A stretch of 64,000 nt of DNA from an uncultured Chloroflexia bacterium (GTDB taxonomy: Bacteria > Chloroflexota > Limnocylindria > Limnocylindrales > CSP1-4), in contig CAVQJC010000020.1 of assembly GCA_963712745.1 (NCBI GenBank), forward strand, positions 160,001 through 224,000, in the 5' to 3' direction. Below the pieces are notes generated by a model. That model was not told where the DNA came from, did not search any database, and was given only the letters and a program-made list of their open reading frames with translations. Made by a program: the position numbers and the translations under genes. Positions 22,293 through 32,932 of the stretch are shown in pieces. Positions within the stretch are counted from its first letter, which is position 1, and the number at the start of each line of letters is the position of its first letter.

Positions 22293-23042
22293 CTACATCA
22301 TCACCATGCCGCCATCGACGGCCAGGACCTGACCGGTGATACAGGCGGCCTCATCGGAGGCCAGGAAGACCACCGCCGCGGCAACGTCCTCGGGGGTCGC
22401 GAAGCGGCCGAGCGGTGTGCGCCGCTTGGCTTCCTCCAGCAGCTCCTGGGGCAGGTCGGCGGTGAGGTCGGTAGGCACGAATCCCGGCGCTACCGCGTTG
22501 GCCGTGATACCGCGAGAGCCCAACTCCCTGGCCGTAGCCTTGGTCAGGCCGATGAGGCCGGCCTTGGACGAGGAGTAGTTGGCCTGGCCCTCCTGACCGG
22601 CCTGGCCCGAGACACTGGTGATGTTGATGATGCGTCCACTGCGCGCCTTGAGCATCGGCCGGGTCACGGCCTTGATGGTGTAGAAAGCACCGAAGAGGTT
22701 CGTCTCGAGCACGATGCTCCAGTCCTCGGGCTTCATGCGCATGATGAGGTCGTCGCGATTGAGGCCGGCGTTGTTGACCAGGATGTCGATCTTCCCAAGC
22801 TCCTCGAGGGCCGTCCTGACGAGCGCGATGGCGGCCTCCTGGTCGCGGGCATCGGCCTGCACGGCGAGGGCCTTTCGCCCGAGCGCCTCGATGGCCGCCA
22901 CGGTCTGCTCGGCGGCGGAGACATTGCCCTTGTAGCTGATGCAGACGTCGGCGCCCTGCTCCGCGAGACGCACGGCGATGGCACGGCCGATGCCGCGCGA
23001 ACCCCCGGTGACGAGGGCTGTCCGGCCGCTGAGATCGATCAT
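22293..23042 (-). CDS. fabG: 3-oxoacyl-ACP reductase
   Basis: TGGSRGIG, NNAG, GQANYSSSK and NAVAPGF, within the fab operon. Confidence 0.95.
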   Translation of the reverse strand: MIDLSGRTALVTGGSRGIGRAIAVRLAEQGADVCISYKGNVSAAEQTVAAIEALGRKALAVQADARDQEAAIALVRTALEELGKIDILVNNAGLNRDDLIMRMKPEDWSIVLETNLFGAFYTIKAVTRPMLKARSGRIINITSVSGQAGQEGQANYSSSKAGLIGLTKATARELGSRGITANAVAPGFVPTDLTADLPQELLEEAKRRTPLGRFATPEDVAAAVVFLASDEAACITGQVLAVDGGMVMM

Positions 23043-24253
23043 GGCTGCTCCTTCGTGTGTGCGTGTTCGGGCTCGCCGGGTACGACGTCATCGAGTGGGA
23101 CCGGTGGTCCGCTGGGATCGTCGAGCACCGCAGCCAGGCGCGGCGGGATGGGATCGACCGAGGCCCAGTCGAGCGGCGCACGCACGCTGGCCACCGGCTC
23201 CACGGCTCTGCCTCGCTCGGCCTGGGCCGGGTCCGCCGTCCAGGTCAGGGCGACGGCTCCAGACGTGAAGCCAGCCCCGAAGGCTACGAAGACGATCTTG
23301 TCACCGGGTTTGACGCGGCCCTCCTGTACGGCCTCGTCGAGCGCGATGCCGACCGAAGCGGCAGAGGTGTTGCCGTACTTGTCGATGTTCACGAACATCT
23401 TGGACATGGGCAGGTTCAGGCCCTTGGCCACCGCCTCGATGATGCGCACGTTGGCCTGGTGCGGGATGAAGAGGTCCACGTCGGCCGGCTGCCAGCCGGC
23501 CTTCTCGATGGCCGCCAGTGCCGAGGAGGCCAGCGTGCGCGTGGCGAAACGGTAGGTCTCACGGCCCTCCATGCGGATGAAGTGCTCGCCGCGGCGGGCC
23601 GTCTCCAGGCTGGGCGGGCTCTTGGACCCTCCCGATGGCATCCAGATCATGTAGGCACCGTCCGGATCGGTGGTCAGCTCCAGGCCGGCCATGCCGCCTC
23701 CGTCCTCGTCCGAGGCAGAGAGCACCACGGCTCCGGCACCGTCGCCGAAGAGGATGCAGGTGCCGCGGTCCTCGAAATCGAGGAACCGGGTCAGCAGCTC
23801 GGCCCCCACCACGAGCACGTTGCGGGCCATCCCGCTGCGGACGTAGGAATCGGCGGTGGCGTAGGCGAAGACGAAGCCGGAGCAGGCGGCGCCGATGTCG
23901 AAGGCGGCCGCGGTGGTGTTGCCGATGGCCTCCTTGACAAGGGCTGCCGTCGACGGCATGGGGTAGTCGGGCGTGAGCGTGGCCACGACGATGACGTCGA
24001 TATCGTCAGGTTCCAGCCCGGCCGTCGCGATGGCCCGCAGGGCGGCGATGGCGCCGAGCGTGGCGGTCGTCTCGTGCGGGGCGGCCACCCGCCGCTCGCT
24101 GATGCCGGTGCGGGTCCGGATCCACTCGTCGGATGTGTCGACGAGCCGCTCGAGGTCGGCGTTGGAGAGCACCCGCTCAGGTACGTACGAGCCCCACCCG
24201 CTGACGCGGACGCTGCGAGGCGGACCGCCGGGCACGGCGCCAGGTCCACTCAT
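23039..24253 (-). CDS. fabH: Beta-ketoacyl-ACP synthase III
   Basis: DTSDEWIRTRTGI, AACSGF, LFGDGAGA, PHQAN and YGNTSAAS, with an extra C-terminal tail. Confidence 0.95.
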   Translation of the reverse strand: MSGPGAVPGGPPRSVRVSGWGSYVPERVLSNADLERLVDTSDEWIRTRTGISERRVAAPHETTATLGAIAALRAIATAGLEPDDIDVIVVATLTPDYPMPSTAALVKEAIGNTTAAAFDIGAACSGFVFAYATADSYVRSGMARNVLVVGAELLTRFLDFEDRGTCILFGDGAGAVVLSASDEDGGGMAGLELTTDPDGAYMIWMPSGGSKSPPSLETARRGEHFIRMEGRETYRFATRTLASSALAAIEKAGWQPADVDLFIPHQANVRIIEAVAKGLNLPMSKMFVNIDKYGNTSAASVGIALDEAVQEGRVKPGDKIVFVAFGAGFTSGAVALTWTADPAQAERGRAVEPVASVRAPLDWASVDPIPPRLAAVLDDPSGPPVPLDDVVPGEPEHAHTKEQP

Positions 24254-24726
24254 GCGGGATCGACCTCGATGAGCGTCTGCCTGGCCTTGACCAGGTCACC
24301 GTCGCCGGCGGCGACGCGTCTGACCGTGCCGGTCACGTCGCACTTGATCTCATTGAACAGCTTCATGGCCTCGATGAGACCGATGACCTGGCCGGCATTG
24401 ACCTGGCCCCCCTCCCGGACATAGGGCTCGGCGTCGGGCGACGGCGAGCGGTAGAAGACCCCGGTCAGCGGCGCGCTGACAGCATGGGCGCCTCGCTCCT
24501 GCATTGGCTCATCCTCGAGTGGTGGCTCGGCCAGCGGCAGATCGGGCGAGACCGTCGAGGTCACCACGGCAGCCGCCACCGGAGCGATCGCGCCCAGCGT
24601 ACGCAGCACCACGGTGGTGTCAGCGTGCTCCACCTCGAGCTCGGCCAGGCCGGACCGCTCCAGCAGTCGCTCGAGACGGTCGATGAGAGCCAACAGCTCG
24701 GCCATCTCCGCGCGCTCGGCCATCAA
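24250..24726 (-). CDS. accB: Biotin carboxyl carrier protein (biotinylatable)
   Basis: APLTGVFYRSPSPDAEPYV (thumb) and IEAMKLFNEI biotinylation motif. Confidence 0.95.
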   Translation of the reverse strand: MMAERAEMAELLALIDRLERLLERSGLAELEVEHADTTVVLRTLGAIAPVAAAVVTSTVSPDLPLAEPPLEDEPMQERGAHAVSAPLTGVFYRSPSPDAEPYVREGGQVNAGQVIGLIEAMKLFNEIKCDVTGTVRRVAAGDGDLVKARQTLIEVDPA

Positions 24727-25988
24727 CCGTTCCAGCGCTGGAGCACGATGGCCGAGTTCTGGCCACCGAAGCCGAAGGCATTGACGAGGGCCACGTCCAG
24801 CTCGCGCTCCCGCGCCTTGAGCGGGGTCAGGTCCAGCGCACCGGCTCGCTCGTCGGGCTGGTGCAGGTTGAGCGTGGGCGGTACGACACCCTCCTCGAGT
24901 GCCTTGACCGTAGCCACGGCCGCCACCGCACCGGCCGCACCGAGCGTGTGCCCGATGGACGACTTGGTGGCAGTCACGCTGACCTCGGCGGCGTGATCTC
25001 CGACCAGGGCGTTGATGGCCAGCAGTTCGGTTGGGTCGCCTTCGCCGGTGCTGGTGGCATGGGCGCTGACGAGGTCGATGTCGGCCGGCTCAAGGCCGGC
25101 CTTCTCGAGCGCGCGGCGCGCGGCACGCACGGCCCCCATGCCACCCGGTGAGGGCGTGGTGATGTGGTGGCCGTCGGCGGTGGCGCCGTAGCCACAGACC
25201 TCGGCATAGATGCGGGCGCCGCGGCGTCGGGCGTGCTCCAGCTCCTCGAGCACCAGCGTGCCCGAACCCTCTGCCACCACGAATCCATCCCGCGCTGCGT
25301 CGAAGGGGCGGCTCGCCGCCTCGGGTTCGTCGTTGCGGGTGGAAAGCGCCTTCATGCGCGCGAAGCCGGCCACGATGGCGTCAGCCACGGGCGCCTCACA
25401 ACCCCCGGCGAGCATGACGTCGGCGTCGCCGCGGCGGATGATCTCGTAGGACTCGCCGAGTGCGTGACCGGCCGAGGCACAGGCGCTGGTGGTGGAGTAA
25501 TTGGGGCCGAGTGCCCCGAAGGTGATGCCAGCCACGCCCGCGGGCATGTTGGCGATGGCCATGGGGATGAAGAAGGGGCTGACCCGGCCCGGGCCGTCGA
25601 TGCGGCAGATGGCGATCTGTTCGATGAGCGTGTTGGTGCCACCCAGGCCCGAGGCCATGAGCACGCCGGTCATCTCCGCGGCCTGGCCCTCGAACCGGCT
25701 GGGCAGGCCCGCGTCGATCAGCGCCTCATGCGTCGCGACCAGGCCCATGTGGGTGGCGCGGTCGTTGCGCCGGACCTCCTTGCGGTCGAGCACGGCAGAG
25801 GGGTCGAGGTCGGTCACCTCGCCGGCGATGCGGGCGGTCGACCGCGAGGCGTCGAAGCAGGTGATGGGGCCGATGCCGGATTCCCCCGCCACCAGGCGTC
25901 GCCAGAAGGTCGGGACATCGTTGCCCAGCGGGGTGACGGCCCCGAGGCCGGTCACGACCACGCGGCGGCCCCCGGCGACGGAGGTCAT
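24723..25988 (-). CDS. fabF: Beta-ketoacyl-ACP synthase II
   Basis: RRVVVTGLG, TSACASAGHA, AHATST, TKSSIGHTLGAAG and NAFGFGGQN. Confidence 0.95.
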   Translation of the reverse strand: MTSVAGGRRVVVTGLGAVTPLGNDVPTFWRRLVAGESGIGPITCFDASRSTARIAGEVTDLDPSAVLDRKEVRRNDRATHMGLVATHEALIDAGLPSRFEGQAAEMTGVLMASGLGGTNTLIEQIAICRIDGPGRVSPFFIPMAIANMPAGVAGITFGALGPNYSTTSACASAGHALGESYEIIRRGDADVMLAGGCEAPVADAIVAGFARMKALSTRNDEPEAASRPFDAARDGFVVAEGSGTLVLEELEHARRRGARIYAEVCGYGATADGHHITTPSPGGMGAVRAARRALEKAGLEPADIDLVSAHATSTGEGDPTELLAINALVGDHAAEVSVTATKSSIGHTLGAAGAVAAVATVKALEEGVVPPTLNLHQPDERAGALDLTPLKARERELDVALVNAFGFGGQNSAIVLQRWNG

Positions 25989-26732
25989 CGGACGAACCTC
26001 CCGGTGCGGATGGTAGCGGCACGGTAGACGTCGCCGGGCAGCCCGCGCTCGGCGACCTGCTCGGCGGCGGACTGCGGATCGTAGGCTGCGCGCAGCAGCT
26101 CGGCCTGTGGGTCGGCTCCTTCTTCCAGCGTGAGGAGACCCCAGCAGGCGTCAGGCGTGCCGTCGAAGGCGTAGCCGCATGACCCCGGGTTGACGATGAG
26201 CTTGCGGCCCAGCTCGCGCATGTCGGCCACGTGCGTGTGGCCGCAGCAGATCGACCCGCGCGTCGGTGCGAGTGACGCGCTGGACGGTGACGGCCGGGTC
26301 CAGGTCCGCGGGCAGGCCGCTGGTCTGGCTGCCGGGCGAGGCATGCGTCGCCAGCACCAGCTCGTCGCCGACGGTCAGCCGGCGTTCCGCAGGCAGCCGT
26401 CGCAGGTAGTCCAGCTGCTCGTCGTCCAGCTGCTCCCGGGCCCACTCGGCGGCGGCCCGGTGGCCGGCCGGCACCTCGTCGAGCCAGGGGAAAGCCGCAG
26501 CGTAGTCGCCGTCGGCCACAGCGATGTCGGTGTTGCCGGCGATGACCCAGGCACCGTCGGCCTCGAGCCGCCTGACCCTTTCCACCGTCTCGGCCGGCCG
26601 GGGTCCGTTGAGCACCAAGTCGCCGAGCACGATGACGCGGTCGGCGCCGCGCTGCTCGATGGCCGTCAGGGCAGCCTCGAGCGCGTCGAGGTTGCCGTGG
26701 ATGTCGGAGATGAGGGCGATGCGCCGCGTCAT
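25985..26732 (-). CDS. YfcE-like metallophosphoesterase, interrupted by a +1 frameshift at about 26252
   Basis: The first frame has ISDIHGN, LGDLV, GNTD and THASP. The second has CGHTH and NPGSCG. ATGA overlaps at both ends. Confidence 0.88.
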
Positions 26733-27217
26733 CGGAGGGCCTCCGCGGGTGGGATGACGAAGGAGATGAGCGCCTCACAGGCGATCTCACCGTCGACCGA
26801 GGCGACCGCCCGGCCCTTGCCGAAGCGACGACCGAGCTTCTCCATGGTGACCTCCAACGTGAGCCGGTCGCCCGGCTGCACGACCCGCTTGAAGCGGCAT
26901 CCGTCGATGCCGGCGAAGAGGCCGATGCGGTCGCCGAAGCCCTCCTCGCGGGCCACGTAGACGGCCATCGTCTGGGCCAGTGCCTCGACCTGGATGACCC
27001 CTGGCATGACCGGCAGGTCGGGGAAGTGCCCGCCGAAGAACCACTCTGAAGCCGTGACGGCCTTCTCGCCGCGGATGTAGCCCCGCTCGCGGTCCTCCTC
27101 GACGATGCGATCGACGAGCAGGAACGGCCAGCGGTGGGGGATGAGCTTCTGGAGCTCGGCGGTCGTGAGCAGGACAGCGGACGGCTGCCCGGCGGAGTGC
27201 CCCTGAGCGTCGGTCAT
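26729..27217 (-). CDS. fabZ: 3-hydroxyacyl-ACP dehydratase
   Basis: IPHRWPFLLVDR and GHFPDLPVMPGVIQVEALAQ. Confidence 0.96.
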   Translation of the reverse strand: MTDAQGHSAGQPSAVLLTTAELQKLIPHRWPFLLVDRIVEEDRERGYIRGEKAVTASEWFFGGHFPDLPVMPGVIQVEALAQTMAVYVAREEGFGDRIGLFAGIDGCRFKRVVQPGDRLTLEVTMEKLGRRFGKGRAVASVDGEIACEALISFVIPPAEALR

Positions 27218-27246: not shown

Positions 27247-28626
27247 TCAGGCCCCGTGGTCGGGCGCCACGGCGTCAAGGAACGCCGCCGCACCCTTGCG
27301 GTCAAGCAGGTTGGTATCGAAGCCACCCGAGAGGAACGTCTCGTCCTCGAGGAGGGCCCGGTGGAACGGGATGTTCGTCTCGATGCCCTCGACCAGCAGT
27401 TCGCGCAGCGCCACGCGAGAGCGTGCGATGGCGGATTCCCGGTCGGGACCCCAGACGATGAGCTTGCCCAGGAGTAAATCGTAGTACGGCGGCACCTCGT
27501 AGCCGCTGTAGAGGTGGGTCTCCATGCGGATGCCGGCGCCACCGGGCGGAACGTAGTGCTCGACCACCCCGGCCTGGGGCTGGAAATCGGCCCGCACATC
27601 CTCGGCATTGATGCGGAACTCGATGGCGTGACCGCGGCTGTGGACATCCTCCTGGCCATAGCCCAGCTCCTCGCCGGCCGCGAGCCGGATCTGCTCGGCC
27701 ACGATATCGATGCCGCTGAGCATCTCGGTCACCGGGTGCTCCACCTGGATGCGGGCGTTGATCTCGATGAAGTAGTAGCGACCCTCGCCGTCGACGAGGA
27801 ACTCCAGCGTACCCACGTTCTGGTAGCCCGCGGCCACGGCCGCCTTGACCGCCGCCTCGCAGAGGGCCGTGCGTGTGGCCTCGTCGATGGCCGGGCTGGG
27901 TGCCTCCTCCACGATCTTCTGGTGCCGCCGCTGGACCGAGCAGTCGCGCTCACCGACATGGACGCCGTGGCCATACATGTCGATGAGCACCTGGACCTCG
28001 ACGTGCCGCGTCCGCTCGAGCCACTTCTCGAGATAGAGCGAATCGTCCCCGAACGCGGCTCGCGCCTCCGAGCGGCAGACCGTCAGCGCCTGCTGCAGCT
28101 CGCGCGGGGTGCGCACCATGCGCATGCCCTTGCCGCCACCACCAGCACTGGGCTTGATGAGCAGCGGATAGCCCACGCGCTCGGCCTCCTCGAGCGCATG
28201 CGTGTCGTCGCGCAGCATGCCGTGGGAGCCGGGCACCATGGGCAGGCCGTGCTGGGCCAGCAACTCACGGGTCCCTGCCTTCGAGGCAAAGCGCTCGAGC
28301 ACCTCTGCCGAGGGGCCGATGAAGGTGAGGTCGTGAGCCCGGGTCATCTCCGCGAATCCGTCGTCCTCGCTGAGGAAGCCGTAGCCGGGATGGATGGCAT
28401 CGCAGCCGCTGACCAGGGCTGCGCTGATGACCGACGCTGCGCTCAGGTAGGAGCGTGCGGACTCGGCGGGGCCGATGCAGATGGACTCGTCGGCCATGCG
28501 CACGGCGCGCGATTCGGTGTCGGCCTCGCTGTGGGCCACGACCGCCTCGATGCCCATGCTTCGGCAGGCGCGCAGCACGCGTACGGCGATCTCGCCGCGG
28601 TTGGCGATGAGGACACGGGTGATCAC
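27247..28626 (-). CDS. accC: Biotin carboxylase
   Basis: VLIANRGEIAVR, IHPGYGFLSE, GGGGKGMR, RDCSVQRRHQK and RIQVEHPVTE. Confidence 0.97.
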   Translation of the reverse strand: MITRVLIANRGEIAVRVLRACRSMGIEAVVAHSEADTESRAVRMADESICIGPAESARSYLSAASVISAALVSGCDAIHPGYGFLSEDDGFAEMTRAHDLTFIGPSAEVLERFASKAGTRELLAQHGLPMVPGSHGMLRDDTHALEEAERVGYPLLIKPSAGGGGKGMRMVRTPRELQQALTVCRSEARAAFGDDSLYLEKWLERTRHVEVQVLIDMYGHGVHVGERDCSVQRRHQKIVEEAPSPAIDEATRTALCEAAVKAAVAAGYQNVGTLEFLVDGEGRYYFIEINARIQVEHPVTEMLSGIDIVAEQIRLAAGEELGYGQEDVHSRGHAIEFRINAEDVRADFQPQAGVVEHYVPPGGAGIRMETHLYSGYEVPPYYDLLLGKLIVWGPDRESAIARSRVALRELLVEGIETNIPFHRALLEDETFLSGGFDTNLLDRKGAAAFLDAVAPDHGA

Positions 28627-29138
28627 GACTCGGCCACCTCGCCGACCGCCTCGCTCCCGAGCTCGACCTCGAAGGGATCGACGTCGATGAGTGCCTGACC
28701 GTACTCCACGGCCTGCCCGTCTTCGGCTAGCACGCGACTGATGATGCCGTGGGCTGGAGCTGTGACCTCCTGCGCGATGCCGAGCACATCGACGCTACCG
28801 AGCAGGTCGCCGGCCTGGACCGAGTTCCCCACCGCGAGGCCCGAGAGAGGCAGGAAGTAGCCGACCGCCGGGGAGCGTGCCACCCTGCCGTCGAGCGCAG
28901 GGGACGACTCGGACTCCGCACCGGGGCCGCCGGCGGGCAGAGCCATCCGCGACGGCGAACCCACGTCGCGTCGCAGGCGCACGCGCCAGCCACTCGTGCG
29001 CACCTCCAGCTCGCCCAGCCGGCTCGAGCGCAAGCGGGCGATGAGCGCCGGCAGCACCTCGTCCGTCAGGTCCTCGAGCCGGGCGGTCGACCCTTCGTCC
29101 GCGCCCTCCGGGACTCGCCCGGCCGCCTCGTCGGTCAC
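28623..29138 (-). CDS. Lysine-free BCCP paralogue (non-biotinylatable, BADC-like)
   Basis: AccB-like N-terminus (LIARLRSSRLGELEVRTSGWRVRLRR) and biotinyl/lipoyl fold (RSPAVGYF...VQAGDLLG...EDGQAVEYGQALI), but DVLG replaces EAMK. GTGA overlap with accA, (A/G)TGA overlap with accC. Confidence 0.88.
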   Translation of the reverse strand: MTDEAAGRVPEGADEGSTARLEDLTDEVLPALIARLRSSRLGELEVRTSGWRVRLRRDVGSPSRMALPAGGPGAESESSPALDGRVARSPAVGYFLPLSGLAVGNSVQAGDLLGSVDVLGIAQEVTAPAHGIISRVLAEDGQAVEYGQALIDVDPFEVELGSEAVGEVAES

Positions 29139-30208
29139 GTATCACTCCCCTCGTCGCCGAGATGGGCATGCCCATCGACCTCGGTGCCCTGTCCGTCCTC
29201 CAGGTCGTCGGCCGCATCGGGCGCAAGCCGCTCGCCTTCGCCTACGGCCATCACCCGCTGGCCAGAGTCCAGCAACGTGCGCAGCCGGTCCACCCAGTTC
29301 TGGCGTTCACGGCGCTCACGCACCGGCAGATCCTTGGTGGTGAAGGCGCCGTAGTTGCGATACCGCGCGTAACGGGCCCGGACCAGTTCGTCGACATCAT
29401 GGTGGACCAGCGCCTCGAGCTGCGCCTCGATGGCCTCGCCCAGCCGGTGCGCGGTCTCGTCGGGATCCTCGTGAGCCCCCTCTCCCGGTTCGCTGATGAC
29501 GGTGTCGATGACCCCCAGCGCCTGCTGCTCGCGGGCCGTCAGACGCATGGCCACCGCGGCCTGCTTGGCCATGTCGCTGGTGCGCCAGAGGATGCTGGCA
29601 CAGCCCTCCGGCGAGATGACTGAGTAGATGGCGTTCTCGAGCGCGAGCACGACGTCGCCGACGGCGATGGCCAGCGCCCCGCCGGAGCCCCCTTCACCGG
29701 TGATGACGGTGACGATGGGCGTACGCAGCGAGGTCATGTCCGCGATGTTGCGGGCGATAGCCTCGGCCTGGCCCCGCTCTTCCGAGGGCGCATCGGGTGC
29801 CGCTCCGGGCGTGTCCACGAAGGTGACCACCGGCAGACCGAGCCGCTCGGCCAGCTTCAGCAGCCGACCGGCCTTGCGGTAGCCCTCTGGGTGGGGCATG
29901 CCGAAGTTGCGGCGGATGTTCTCCTCGACGTCACCACCCTTCTGGTGACCCAGGAACACCACGCGGTGCTCGCCGATCGTGGCCAGGCCTCCCACCAGCG
30001 CGGGGTCGTCGCCGAAGGCGCGATCGCCATGGAGCTCGACCACTTGGCTGGCCATGCCTCCCAGCAGCTCGAGCGTGTGGGGGCGCTGCACGTTGCGGGC
30101 CATCTGCACGCGCGCCCAGACGGCCTCGCGCAGGGCCTCCTCATCGACATCCGCGATCACCGACCCCGGGTCGGCGCTCTCGGGCATCGCGGTCACCGGC
30201 TCAGCCAC
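29135..30208 (-). CDS. accA: Acetyl-CoA carboxylase carboxyltransferase alpha
   Basis: ELHGDRAFGDD, RNFGMPHPEGYRKA, GEGGSGGALA and YSVISPEGCASILW. The start is approximate (GTG 30208 or ATG 30187). Confidence 0.95.
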   Translation of the reverse strand: MAEPVTAMPESADPGSVIADVDEEALREAVWARVQMARNVQRPHTLELLGGMASQVVELHGDRAFGDDPALVGGLATIGEHRVVFLGHQKGGDVEENIRRNFGMPHPEGYRKAGRLLKLAERLGLPVVTFVDTPGAAPDAPSEERGQAEAIARNIADMTSLRTPIVTVITGEGGSGGALAIAVGDVVLALENAIYSVISPEGCASILWRTSDMAKQAAVAMRLTAREQQALGVIDTVISEPGEGAHEDPDETAHRLGEAIEAQLEALVHHDVDELVRARYARYRNYGAFTTKDLPVRERRERQNWVDRLRTLLDSGQRVMAVGEGERLAPDAADDLEDGQGTEVDGHAHLGDEGSDT

Positions 30209-31100
30209 GGATCGCCTCCGCATCGGCCCCACCGCGCCCGTTGACGGAATGCCCGTTGTGGTTGATCCGCTCGGCCCTGGGCTGAAGGTAGCGCAGCAGG
30301 CGAGCCACCTCAGCGCGCAGCTCGGCCCGCGGCACGACCAGGTCGAGGAAGCCGTGGCGGTAGAGGAACTCGGCACGCTGGAAGCCCTCGGGCAGCTCAT
30401 CGCCGGTGGTGCCCGCCGCCACGCGTGCGCCGGCAAATCCGATGAGGGCGTTGGGCTCAGCGATGTTGACGTCGCCCAGGGCTGCGAAGGAGGCGAAGAC
30501 GCCGCCAGTGGTGGGGTCGGACATGATGCTGACATAGGGCACGCCTGCGAGCGCCAGGCGTTCCACCGCCGCGCAGGTCTTGACCAGCTGCATCAACGCC
30601 AGCGTGCCTTCCTGCATGCGGGCGCCGCCCGAGGTGCTCACGGCCACGTAGGGGATGCGCCGCTCGAGGGCGGCCTCTGCGGCGCGGGTGATCTTCTCGC
30701 CCACCACCGAACCCATCGAGCCCCCCATGTAGGCGAAGTCCATGGCGCAGATCGAGACCGATTGGCCCTCGATGGCCCCGATGCCCCAGACCGCCGCATC
30801 GCGGATGCCGGTCTTGGCCTTCTGTTCAGCGACCCGATCGGGGTAGGTCTTGAGATCGACGAAGCCAAGAGGATCGAGCGATTCGAGCCCGGCATCATGC
30901 TCTTCGAACGAGTCGGCATCGAGCAGGCTGCCGAGGCGGACATCCACCCGCAGCCGGAAGTGGTGCCCGCACCTGGGGCAGACGCGCTGGTTCTCCTCGA
31001 GCTGCTTGTTGTAGATCATCTCGCTACAGCCGGGGCACTTGGTCCAGAGGTCTGAGCGCGAGGAATCGGGGCGCGGGCGGAACGGCAGGCGGATGGGCAC
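30201..31100 (-). CDS. accD: Acetyl-CoA carboxylase carboxyltransferase beta
   Basis: Zn finger LWTKCPGC...VCPRCGHH, GGSMGSVVGEK, SGGARMQEG and DPTTGGVFASF. Confidence 0.97.
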   Translation of the reverse strand: MPIRLPFRPRPDSSRSDLWTKCPGCSEMIYNKQLEENQRVCPRCGHHFRLRVDVRLGSLLDADSFEEHDAGLESLDPLGFVDLKTYPDRVAEQKAKTGIRDAAVWGIGAIEGQSVSICAMDFAYMGGSMGSVVGEKITRAAEAALERRIPYVAVSTSGGARMQEGTLALMQLVKTCAAVERLALAGVPYVSIMSDPTTGGVFASFAALGDVNIAEPNALIGFAGARVAAGTTGDELPEGFQRAEFLYRHGFLDLVVPRAELRAEVARLLRYLQPRAERINHNGHSVNGRGGADAEAIRG

Positions 31101-31525
31101 TAGAGGATGCCCCCCGAAGATCGGGAGCGACGCCAGGCCACGATGGCCGCGCCCGCCAGCGGCAGCGCCAGCGAGACGCCCGAGGCGATGGCGCCGCCAG
31201 CTACCAGGCTGCGGCGGCGTCGATCGACACCCTGGGCATCGACCGGCTCCAACCCGCGCCCGGTCGTGGCAGCAGGATGGAGTGGGACCGGTTCCGCCAG
31301 GACGGCCCGCGGCTCTCCGGTCTGCATCCGGCGGGCAGCGGCCAAGCGGGCAGCCAGCAGATCCTCGAAACCGAAGCGCGGGTGCAGCCGGGGCAGGGAG
31401 TCGCGCAGCAGGCGCGCGGTCGCGGCCAGCTCGCCGTCAGCGCCGGACCGCGGACCGTCGTCGCCCCGGAGGATGGAGTCGATGGCGCTGTCAAGCTGCG
31501 TGGCGTTCTCGGGGGCTCCCGTCAT
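31100..31525 (-). CDS. Small protein with a single C-terminal TM helix, putative anti-sigma factor
   Basis: ATGA-coupled to the ECF sigma gene, with a helical cytoplasmic N-terminus and one TM. Its stop overlaps the accD start (TAGTG). Confidence 0.55.
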   Translation of the reverse strand: MTGAPENATQLDSAIDSILRGDDGPRSGADGELAATARLLRDSLPRLHPRFGFEDLLAARLAAARRMQTGEPRAVLAEPVPLHPAATTGRGLEPVDAQGVDRRRRSLVAGGAIASGVSLALPLAGAAIVAWRRSRSSGGIL

Positions 31526-32115
31526 GGCTCCAGTCGCCCACGCACCGAGACCAGGGCGCGGTGGATGAGCACACGGACGGCGCCTTCGGACTTGCCCATG
31601 ATCTCGCCGATCTCGCGCGCGCTGAGTTCGTTGACGAAGCGCAGCACGACTGCCTGGCGCCGTTCGGGGGGCAGCTCCATCACGGCCGCGAGCGCTCGCC
31701 GCGCCTCCAGGCGCGTCTCGGCCGCCACCGCCGGATCGTCAGGCGCAGTGATGTCGAGCGCCAACTCGAGGGGGTCCTGAGGGTGACGGCGGTCACGCCG
31801 TCGTTCGTTGGCGATGACGTTGCGGGCGATGGCATAGAGCCAGACGCGGAAGGTGGAGTCCTCGCCTTCACCCTGCTCGCGAAAGCGGGGCAGCGCAGAG
31901 AGCGCCTTCAGGAACACACCCTCGGTAATGTCCTCTGCGGCGTGCGGGTCGCGAGTCTCGTAGAGCGCCAGGCTGTAGATCTGTGCCACGTATCTCCGAT
32001 ATAGCTGCTCGAAGGCGCCCGGGTCCCGTTTGGCAGCCTCGACCGCCGGCCGGTCCGAATCGAATGGGACGACGACAGCCGCGGATTCATCACGCCCTCT
32101 CCCCTTCCAAAACAC
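31522..32115 (-). CDS. ECF (sigma-70 group 4) RNA polymerase sigma factor
   Basis: AFEQLYRRY, AEDITEGVFLKA, FRVWLYAIARN and LPPERRQAVVLRF..ELSAREIGEIMGKSEGAVRVLIHRA. Confidence 0.93.
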   Translation of the reverse strand: MFWKGRGRDESAAVVVPFDSDRPAVEAAKRDPGAFEQLYRRYVAQIYSLALYETRDPHAAEDITEGVFLKALSALPRFREQGEGEDSTFRVWLYAIARNVIANERRRDRRHPQDPLELALDITAPDDPAVAAETRLEARRALAAVMELPPERRQAVVLRFVNELSAREIGEIMGKSEGAVRVLIHRALVSVRGRLEP

Positions 32116-32140: not shown

Positions 32141-32932
32141 TCAGGCCGCGGCGTCCACGGCGCAGCGCACGACATCGCCGACCGTGATGGAGCTCAGCGG
32201 CTGGCCCGGACCGGTGCGCACGAGCAGCGAGCCGGTCTCACGGTCGACCCCCACGGCCGTACCTACCACGGCCTCGGAACCGGTCTCGACGGTCACGCTC
32301 GCGCCGGTGGTGATCTGGGCATCAGCCCAGCGGGGGGCATCGAAGGCCCCGGCCCGCAGCTCTTCGTAGAGCGGCTCCAACCTCTCCAGCCAGGCCTCCA
32401 GCAGGGCATCGCGGTCGATGCGCCGGCGACCAGAGGCTTCGGACAGGCTCCACATCGAATCGGCCAGCTCCGGCGGATACTCGCCCTTGGCCCAGTCCAC
32501 GTTGACGCCGAGGCCGACCACGATGGACGCGAGCCGGTCGCCCTCGAAGGCCAATTCGGCGAGCAGACCGGCGACCTTCAACAGGCGCCCGCGATGGACC
32601 GCGATGATGTCGTTGGGCCACTTGAGGGCGAGCCGGTCGGCCGTGGGGCCCAGCAGCGAGGTGGCCGCGCCGAGCATGGCGATCGACGCGATGGCCGGCA
32701 GGCGCCAGGCATGGGCCGCGGACAGGCCGGTCGGCCGAAAGCCGGCCGAGACCAGCAACGAGCCGCCGGGACGGTCCTGCCAGATGCGGTCCAGACGGCC
32801 CCGACCATGGCTCTGCACATCGGCCACGGCCACGCAGACCTCCGCCGTGCCCTCCTCGAGCCAACCGCGCACGACGGCCTGGGTCGAGTCGACCCGCTCG
32901 AATCGCTCGAGGCGGGAAACGAAACCGGGCAC
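32141..32932 (-). CDS. birA: Biotin-protein ligase (no N-terminal HTH)
   Basis: VDSTQ, QSHGRGRLDRIW, LKWPND, KVAGLLAE and GLGVNV. Confidence 0.92.
   Translation of the reverse strand: MPGFVSRLERFERVDSTQAVVRGWLEEGTAEVCVAVADVQSHGRGRLDRIWQDRPGGSLLVSAGFRPTGLSAAHAWRLPAIASIAMLGAATSLLGPTADRLALKWPNDIIAVHRGRLLKVAGLLAELAFEGDRLASIVVGLGVNVDWAKGEYPPELADSMWSLSEASGRRRIDRDALLEAWLERLEPLYEELRAGAFDAPRWADAQITTGASVTVETGSEAVVGTAVGVDRETGSLLVRTGPGQPLSSITVGDVVRCAVDAAA

Follow-up and report, generated by a model that had tools for sequence, protein, structure and literature searches.

The open reading frame (ORF) at 28623..29138 (-) of a 64,000-nucleotide stretch of Limnocylindria DNA (contig CAVQJC010000020.1, positions 160,001 to 224,000; the window), here termed X, encodes a protein of 171 aa with a GTG start. 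Judged by its sequence, it is a conserved paralogue of the biotin carboxyl carrier protein (BCCP, AccB) that is unable to carry biotin; X has no acceptor lysine and therefore cannot be biotinylated and cannot be the carrier of acetyl-CoA carboxylase (ACC), so that it is referred to below as a pseudo-carrier. ACC, the enzyme of the committed step in fatty-acid synthesis, is of interest as an antibiotic target and in metabolic engineering. In bacteria it is usually presented with four subunits, and BADC, the BCCP paralogues without biotinylation motif, are treated as a feature of plants and algae; whether they serve as glue or as inhibitors is under continuing debate. To our knowledge, they have been described as absent from bacteria. 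We lean, if only slightly, towards X being a non-catalytic ACC subunit that docks on the biotin carboxylase and shares the N-terminal hub of BCCP, and that would act in the manner of BADC.

Sequence of X

X is tied to its neighbours accA and accC by 4-nt overlaps, as the original prediction had stated, and direct reading gives GTGA at both junctions (accA stop and X start, 29135..29138 (-); X stop and accC start, 28623..28626 (-)). In Pfam and NCBIfam scans, X hit only biotinyl/lipoyl-type families and no model specific for its own family; Biotin_lipoyl (Pfam) was matched by residues 101-151 (E 2.6e-7; 30.8 bits, with the cut-off at 22.1), and TIGR00531 gave 41.2 bits, below its cut-off of 115.2. 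Its neighbours in the ESM Atlas are "hypothetical protein" clusters from Chloroflexota.

Compared with the AccB encoded in the window (24250..24726 (-)), X showed 35% identity over 85 aa (BLASTP, E 3e-9). DVLG (residues 117-120, 28779..28790 (-)) stands opposite EAMK, and the substitution reported in the original prediction was borne out by direct reading, BLASTP and alignments alike. Besides the acceptor lysine, the flanking methionine is also missing from the hairpin. The N-terminal segment of X aligns with the AccB N-terminus in a small alignment, in which the thumb region of X is 6 residues shorter than that of the window AccB; in a larger alignment the difference amounts to 10 columns. 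The thumb loop, previously described as missing, is shortened. The thumb columns gapped in X are occupied in lysine-less relatives of other classes (L109, L108), and thumb shortening relative to AccB is a trait of Limnocylindria X.

The lysine count of X is 0 over all 171 aa, as had been claimed, and this proved uninformative: neighbouring proteins contain only 1.4-3.1% lysine, by estimate about 3 in 100 proteins of this length would be free of lysine here, which makes X only slightly out of the ordinary, and low-GC orthologues have 3-5 lysines elsewhere and 0 at the motif. The loss from the hairpin is therefore the real feature and the overall absence of lysine is not. Freedom from lysine throughout was accordingly discarded as the key feature, 33 of the 120 closest homologues having one or two lysines elsewhere.

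Conservation and selection in Limnocylindria

Of 2030 candidates from a word-indexed protein search with X, 1276 reached E <= 1e-3. MK was found in 0/120 of the closest homologues, of which 87 had no lysine, 27 had one and 6 had two. An exhaustive search of representatives clustered at 50% identity gave 2469 matches at E <= 1e-3, 253 at <= 1e-10 and 15 at <= 1e-30, and X together with the best 150 of these representatives made up a motif set of 151 rows. At the EAMK position, [DEN]xLG was present in 147/151 rows (DVLG 99, DCLG 12, DMLG 11, EVLG 9, DLLG 8, EMLG 4, NVLG 3, DILG 1); the four exceptions were one 546-aa protein with EAMK, two fragments not covering the site and one unalignable sequence. 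A local defect or a sequencing error is ruled out by these two counts. The 546-aa protein (P0247), the sole EAMK protein among the best 150 representatives, was matched in four stretches; it may have several domains or be a fusion with a biotinyl part.

In an alignment of 134 sequences, L119, G120, E145 and G147 were invariant and P30, L32, L41, E43, E45, W51, R54 and R56 of the N-terminal part nearly so; protein lengths in the family range from 145 to 337 aa. A match to X was present in 41/41 genomes of the same order, with the frame open in all 41, and the gene order accD-accA-X-accC was found in 20/20 loci examined. Families f2 (4/4) and f3 (8/8) of the same class, checked separately, had the same motif and the same gene order (12/12). 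Two outcomes that the original prediction had named as contrary to it, MK in relatives and a gene that is not conserved, were thus not what the homologues and loci displayed. The motif was also present in 16 of 17 loci titled as Chloroflexota or Limnocylindria metagenome-assembled genomes (MAGs), the 17th being broken by frameshifts, and 14 of the 17 additionally carry an IEAMKL accB a few genes downstream. Across 36 related loci, the gap between accA stop and X start was -4..+8 in 30 and that between X stop and accC start -4..+4 in 27, measured with the start codon nearest the upstream stop, a heuristic that favours small gaps. Family f2 (L239-L242) has small genomes of about 1.1 Mb and retains the lysine-less gene nonetheless. 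Upstream of X, where other genomes have accD and accA as separate genes, the one ORF detected in f2 was of accD type, and the two genes may be fused or very close there.

dN/dS was calculated by NG86 and gives rough values, since in these GC-rich genes all but the closest pairs are near saturation at synonymous sites. Closest pairs gave 0.23-0.41 for the whole X gene, 0.07-0.14 for accC and 0.08-0.17 for accA, with 0.34-0.58 for accB from the few pairs available. Over eight pairs, the folded parts of X (residues 21-57 and 86-155) gave 0.06-0.31, and the linker and tails 0.22-1.06. Both folded parts are under purifying selection, and the neutral evolution envisaged as a further contrary outcome does not describe them. 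A decaying accB remnant without function would explain the missing catalytic lysine and the faster evolution of X relative to accA and accC. It does not fit a frame that is open in all 41 related genomes, a replacement motif kept in hundreds of clusters, the dN/dS of the folded parts, or a paralogue that is spread through the phylum with a single origin in the best tree found (see below), and we regard such a remnant as so improbable that it is excluded for practical purposes.

Distribution in Chloroflexota

A profile of the X family, run over 401 Chloroflexota genomes, matched in 210/401 (genome G184, flagged as unpublished, is counted there and was used for no claim). Matches were found in 23/23 genomes of family f1, 4/4 of f2 and 16/16 of f3 at E 1e-32 to 1e-66, in 2/2 of f4 near 1e-21, and in many other families at 1e-13 to 1e-26. 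We inspected 52 of the best places in genomes outside f1-f3, chosen by hand from the list with one to several per family; 38 were without the lysine and 14 had it. The lysine-less copies carried the following at the EAMK position: QSLG in f4, DVLG in f21, EVLG, ETLG and ETLN in f26, EALG and EVLG in f33, EALQ in f7, ETLN and ETLR in f9, EALN in f17, EALN, QSLN and ESLN in f24, EALA and ESLN in f28, EVMM and QVVN in f32, EVLN in f37, EVLR in f40, EALN in f46, EALR in f76 and EAMS in f81. With f1-f3 added to these 15, lysine-less paralogues occur in at least 18 Chloroflexota families. The paralogue is widespread in Chloroflexota and not universal, and a restriction to Limnocylindria was rejected on the basis of the profile search and the inspected loci in other families. 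A canonical copy (IEAMKVFN or IETMK type) was also present in four of five such genomes; the fifth, 76% complete, showed the lysine-less copy only.

In family f4, the QSLG protein adjoins accA. At the loci inspected outside Limnocylindria, pepP-efp lies upstream of the lysine-less gene in 7/7 and xseA downstream in 6/7, and a further Chloroflexota MAG (L077, EAMR) has the order pepP-efp-X-xseA too. topA is often found upstream of this arrangement (L103, L106-L110, L112). In many bacteria accB usually lies in the order efp-accB-accC, so that by position the lysine-less gene seems to have succeeded the ancestral accB. In the genome of the window itself (L182, contig C4), xseA directly follows efp with no BCCP-like gene between them, and this empty slot would fit a move of the gene to the accA/accC junction in the Limnocylindria ancestor.

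The efp-linked loci bear on a reading in which X works outside ACC, as a decoy of biotin protein ligase (BPL) in biotin homeostasis, as a target of PII-type signalling or in a role linked to efp and xseA, its place in the acc operon being secondary. This would accord with the absence of acc genes near the 7/7 loci of other classes, with a BPL/BirA-like gene (32141-32932) 3 kb from X, and with the binding of PII to plant BCCP and BADC reported in PMC12706156. Lysine-less copies nevertheless adjoin acc genes in three separate settings, namely Limnocylindria, f4 and Armatimonadota, and the N-terminal assembly motif of BCCP is kept and constrained. Moreover, with efp-accB-accC as the ordinary accB slot, the efp linkage would be inherited from a true accB and is no sign of a new function. 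We consider a function outside ACC rather unlikely.

Phylogeny

A quick maximum-likelihood tree was computed for 95 BCCP-type proteins. A branch with SH-aLRT 89 separates all canonical proteins together with L053 and L089 from all 46 Chloroflexota lysine-less proteins, L077 and L042. Limnocylindria proteins form a group of 14 rows (support 99), and the efp-linked DVLG proteins of f21 are its sister (support 87). A free quick search with the motif and thumb columns taken out needed two state changes. When the 47 Chloroflexota lysine-less rows were constrained to one clade, the log-likelihood was 21.7 above that of this free tree (p-AU 0.805), the single clade being the better tree in the AU test. 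A single old loss of the lysine in Chloroflexota is thus the best tree found by sequence comparison and is not rejected; with an alignment of only 149 columns it is not proven, and deep branches are weakly supported. L053 and L089 look like separate losses of the lysine in this tree.

Armatimonadota and the lysine-bearing partner

After a chance match, 81 Armatimonadota genomes were searched with the lysine-less L053 protein. Among the 30 best loci (L197-L226; G438, G441-G520), 18 are without the lysine (G 10, R 7, S 1) and 29 adjoin accC. A second copy elsewhere was canonical, of the IEAMK(V/L/I/T)F(N/S) type, in 12/12 genomes checked, and the pair of BCCP paralogues seems to be phylum-wide. 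L089 (EAMH, adjoining accC) comes from an unclassified MAG in which a canonical copy is also present.

The lysine-bearing partners in both phyla (L113-L118, L227-L238; 24250-24726 in the window) share the signature EAMK(V/L)F(N/S), which differs from the EAMKMMN or EAMKLMN of ordinary accC-linked AccB. Going by this signature, the partner copies may be a separate old BCCP lineage.

Predicted structure and docking, and RNA data

An AF2 model of X, built from the family alignment, has a mean pLDDT of 83.9 and three parts. The first is an N-terminal helix and beta-hairpin (residues 16-56, 28971..29093 (-); H16-38, E43-48, E51-56), corresponding to the alpha/beta/beta assembly motif of BCCP; it is followed by a low-complexity linker of family-variable length (residues 57-85, 28884..28970 (-), pLDDT 48-58) and by a biotinyl-type barrel (residues 86-155, 28674..28883 (-), pLDDT about 98) with no acceptor lysine and a shortened thumb. 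With this model, Foldseek found 1bdo (E 6e-7, TM 0.82), P. horikoshii BCCP (TM 0.85-0.91) and 4hr7_G. The X-family profile matched E. coli BCCP (4hr7_B) at 3.9e-19, spanning the N-terminal and C-terminal parts. The assertion that X retains the AccB N-terminal segment and the biotinyl fold is therefore upheld by alignment, Pfam, AF2 and Foldseek together.

A complex model of AccC, AccB and X, with X as the scored chain, gave 0.70, 0.70 and 0.65 with the best control at 0.01, values that may echo the solved E. coli complex of biotin carboxylase (BC) and BCCP; the mark used for such models is reached by 116/157 solved complexes and 2/215 mismatched pairs. At least 38% of contacts agree between runs, and partner pLDDT is at least 66. 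The original prediction had also named a failure to bind AccC or AccB as contrary to it; subject to the same reservation, the model would speak for docking on AccC. Modelled contacts join X residues 91-94, 118-119, 121 and 143-148 to AccC residues 34, 49-53, 59, 64-73 and 98. The AccC-facing residues of X in the model are the most conserved of the family and are also conserved in true BCCPs. Residues 40-57 of X touch AccB 36-47 in the model, and the control containing X and AccB with AccC replaced scored 0.01.

In a preprint on the tube-forming E. coli ACC (PMC11160672), the BCCP C-terminal domain is docked between BC and the AccD N-terminus, the 30 N-terminal BCCP residues form the alpha/beta/beta motif modelled as an oligomeric barrel or hub in the tube centre, and production of BCCP is put at roughly double that of the other subunits. 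Positions of this structural kind could be taken by a lysine-less BCCP in which both parts are retained.

Alternatively, X may be a brake that slows ACC by competition, along the lines of the inhibitor model put forward for plant BADC. X would then occupy the place of BCCP on the biotin carboxylase or in the hub and, without carboxybiotin, would lower flux in proportion to the X:AccB ratio. X shares the fold and the N-terminal motif of AccB and has no lysine, it is predicted to dock on AccC with the surface that surrounds the former biotinyl hairpin, and AccB is encoded apart (fabF-accB-fabH), so that the ratio is regulable in principle. An inhibitor model for BADC is among those reported in PMC11926652, the authors of which favour a glue role over inhibition. 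The packing of X between accA and accC with 4-nt overlaps suggests fixed co-production, which a constitutive subunit fits better, and we hold a brake to be rather unlikely.

RNA data consisted of the assembled contigs of three RNA libraries only, in which uncovered bins are uninformative and which give no readout of strand, level or co-transcription. Contigs identical to the window covered 28830-28967 (library X2) and 28783-28933 (library X3), and the accA/X junction is bridged by an X2 contig (29044-29251) that differs from the window in one letter. As DNA can be present in such libraries, these contigs are a weak hint of X expression at most.

Proposed role of X in ACC

For X as a non-catalytic ACC subunit, the following mechanism is proposed. 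X belongs to the tightly packed accD-accA-X-accC unit, and the organism has a separate lysine-bearing AccB besides. The C-terminal domain of X would take the non-catalytic docking site of BCCP on the biotin carboxylase by way of a conserved surface formed by AVGY, the DVLG hairpin and AVEYGQ, and its N-terminal motif would join the AccB N-termini in their oligomeric hub. X would thereby help to hold BC, BCCP and carboxyltransferase together while biotinylated AccB shuttles between the active sites. The gene would descend from an old Chloroflexota paralogue, which sits in the efp-accB slot in other classes and was relocated between accA and accC in Limnocylindria.

Several results weigh against such a subunit. 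Five nearly complete genomes (f14, f50, f53, f64, f66) showed MK-bearing copies only, and Chloroflexota ACC therefore does not need it. In the 7/7 loci outside Limnocylindria the lysine-less gene is not beside acc genes, so that a family-wide role in ACC is extrapolated from Limnocylindria, f4 and Armatimonadota. X evolves faster than accC and accA (dN/dS 0.07-0.17). The free quick tree, computed without the motif and thumb columns, split the lysine-less group in two, with two state changes. The predicted binding to AccC comes from one model, which possibly scores from the solved E. coli complex, and the pairing of the X and AccB hairpins was dropped as support in view of the 0.01 of the control without AccC. 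Finally, a scaffold and an inhibitor are indistinguishable on the present data.

Among known systems, E. coli AccB/BCCP (1bdo, 4hr7) has the same three-part build as X (helix and hairpin, flexible linker, biotinyl barrel), and X is likewise encoded in the acc operon directly upstream of accC; X differs in having DVLG for EAMK, in lacking both the lysine and the methionine, and in scoring below the TIGR00531 cut-off. Plant and algal BADC1-3 resemble X in being BCCP paralogues that have no biotinylation motif and occur side by side with true BCCP in a heteromeric ACC system. X is instead bacterial and operon-encoded, and comes from the efp/accC-linked bacterial accB lineage; the function of BADC has experimental support, whereas X is known here from sequence and models. 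X may have arisen independently of BADC. For BADC, both promotion of BC-BCCP assembly and inhibition of the enzyme have been reported (PMC11926652, PMC11889953). The epsilon subunits of AccE/PccE type in actinobacterial acyl-CoA carboxylases are small and non-catalytic and, in PMC11926652, are said to glue the holoenzyme; they are unrelated to X in sequence or fold, X matching Biotin_lipoyl-type families only. Chloroflexus ACC is described in PMC11077971 as having a fused BC-BCCP in which EAMKM is kept. A full-text literature search, from whose coverage subscription journals are largely missing, returned nothing relevant on a bacterial lysine-less BCCP.

These likenesses suggest, by analogy with plant BADC, that X may be a bacterial version of a pseudo-carrier subunit of heteromeric ACC. 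More broadly, and as a tentative proposal that we think has somewhat more to be said against it than for it, heteromeric ACC in at least two phyla of Terrabacteria, Chloroflexota and Armatimonadota, would be a five-subunit enzyme in which two old BCCP paralogues divide the labour. The ancestral copy linked to accC and efp would have lost its lysine and become a structural hub and docking subunit, the EAMK(V/L)F(N/S) copy would carry the biotin, and bacterial counterparts of BADC would have arisen independently and more than once. The original prediction that this organism builds a five-subunit ACC is partly supported as regards a lysine-less subunit and does not stand as a peculiarity of the organism, such paralogues being found in at least 18 Chloroflexota families and in Armatimonadota. 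If the broader proposal is true, these bacteria would offer a simple system, encoded in an operon, for deciding whether pseudo-carriers glue or brake ACC. The presence of a conserved, selected, operon-embedded lysine-less BCCP in hundreds of bacterial lineages suggests that pseudo-carriers recur in heteromeric ACCs. In both phyla, many proteins listed in databases as "acetyl-CoA carboxylase biotin carboxyl carrier protein" cannot be carriers, which affects metabolic reconstruction from MAGs.

The acc/fab cluster in the window

The cluster lies on the minus strand in the order accD, accA, X, accC, fabZ, metallophosphoesterase, fabF, accB, fabH, fabG. accD (30201..31100 (-); Pfam Carboxyl_trans, Zn_ribbon_ACC) encodes the carboxyltransferase beta subunit with a zinc ribbon, and accA (29135..30208 (-); Pfam ACCA 1.3e-111) the alpha subunit, its start being uncertain (GTG 30208 or ATG 30187). 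accC (27247..28626 (-); Pfam CPSase_L_D2, Biotin_carb_N, Biotin_carb_C) encodes the biotin carboxylase, the predicted docking partner of X in the complex model. Assigned by Pfam, fabZ (26729-27217 (-)), the metallophosphoesterase gene (26151-26732 (-)) and fabF (24723-25988 (-)) follow, and fabH (23039-24253 (-)) and fabG (22293-23042 (-)) close the series.

Between fabF and fabH lies the canonical accB (24250..24726 (-)), identified by Pfam and alignments, with EAMK and the thumb present. Its product matched Pfam at E 7.4e-15 and scored 93.1 bits with NF005457 (cut-off 87) and 107.2 bits with TIGR00531 (cut-off 115.2). The displacement of the biotinylatable accB that had been pointed out earlier is correct, accC, fabZ, the metallophosphoesterase gene and fabF intervening between X and accB.

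A gene for a BPL (BPL_LplA_LipB and BPL_C; 32141-32932 (-)) is located upstream of accD, and the enzyme presumed to biotinylate AccB is therefore encoded beside the acc operon. Also upstream of accD are ORFs of 141 aa (31100-31525 (-)) and 197 aa (31522-32115 (-)), which resemble an anti-sigma factor and an ECF sigma factor by eye only. The metallophosphoesterase inside the cluster is calcineurin-like, and its gene overlaps fabZ and fabF by a few bases. FabH has 404 aa, with the Pfam core at residues 48-338 and extensions on both sides; its C-terminal tail comprises about 65 residues and is rich in proline and acidic residues.

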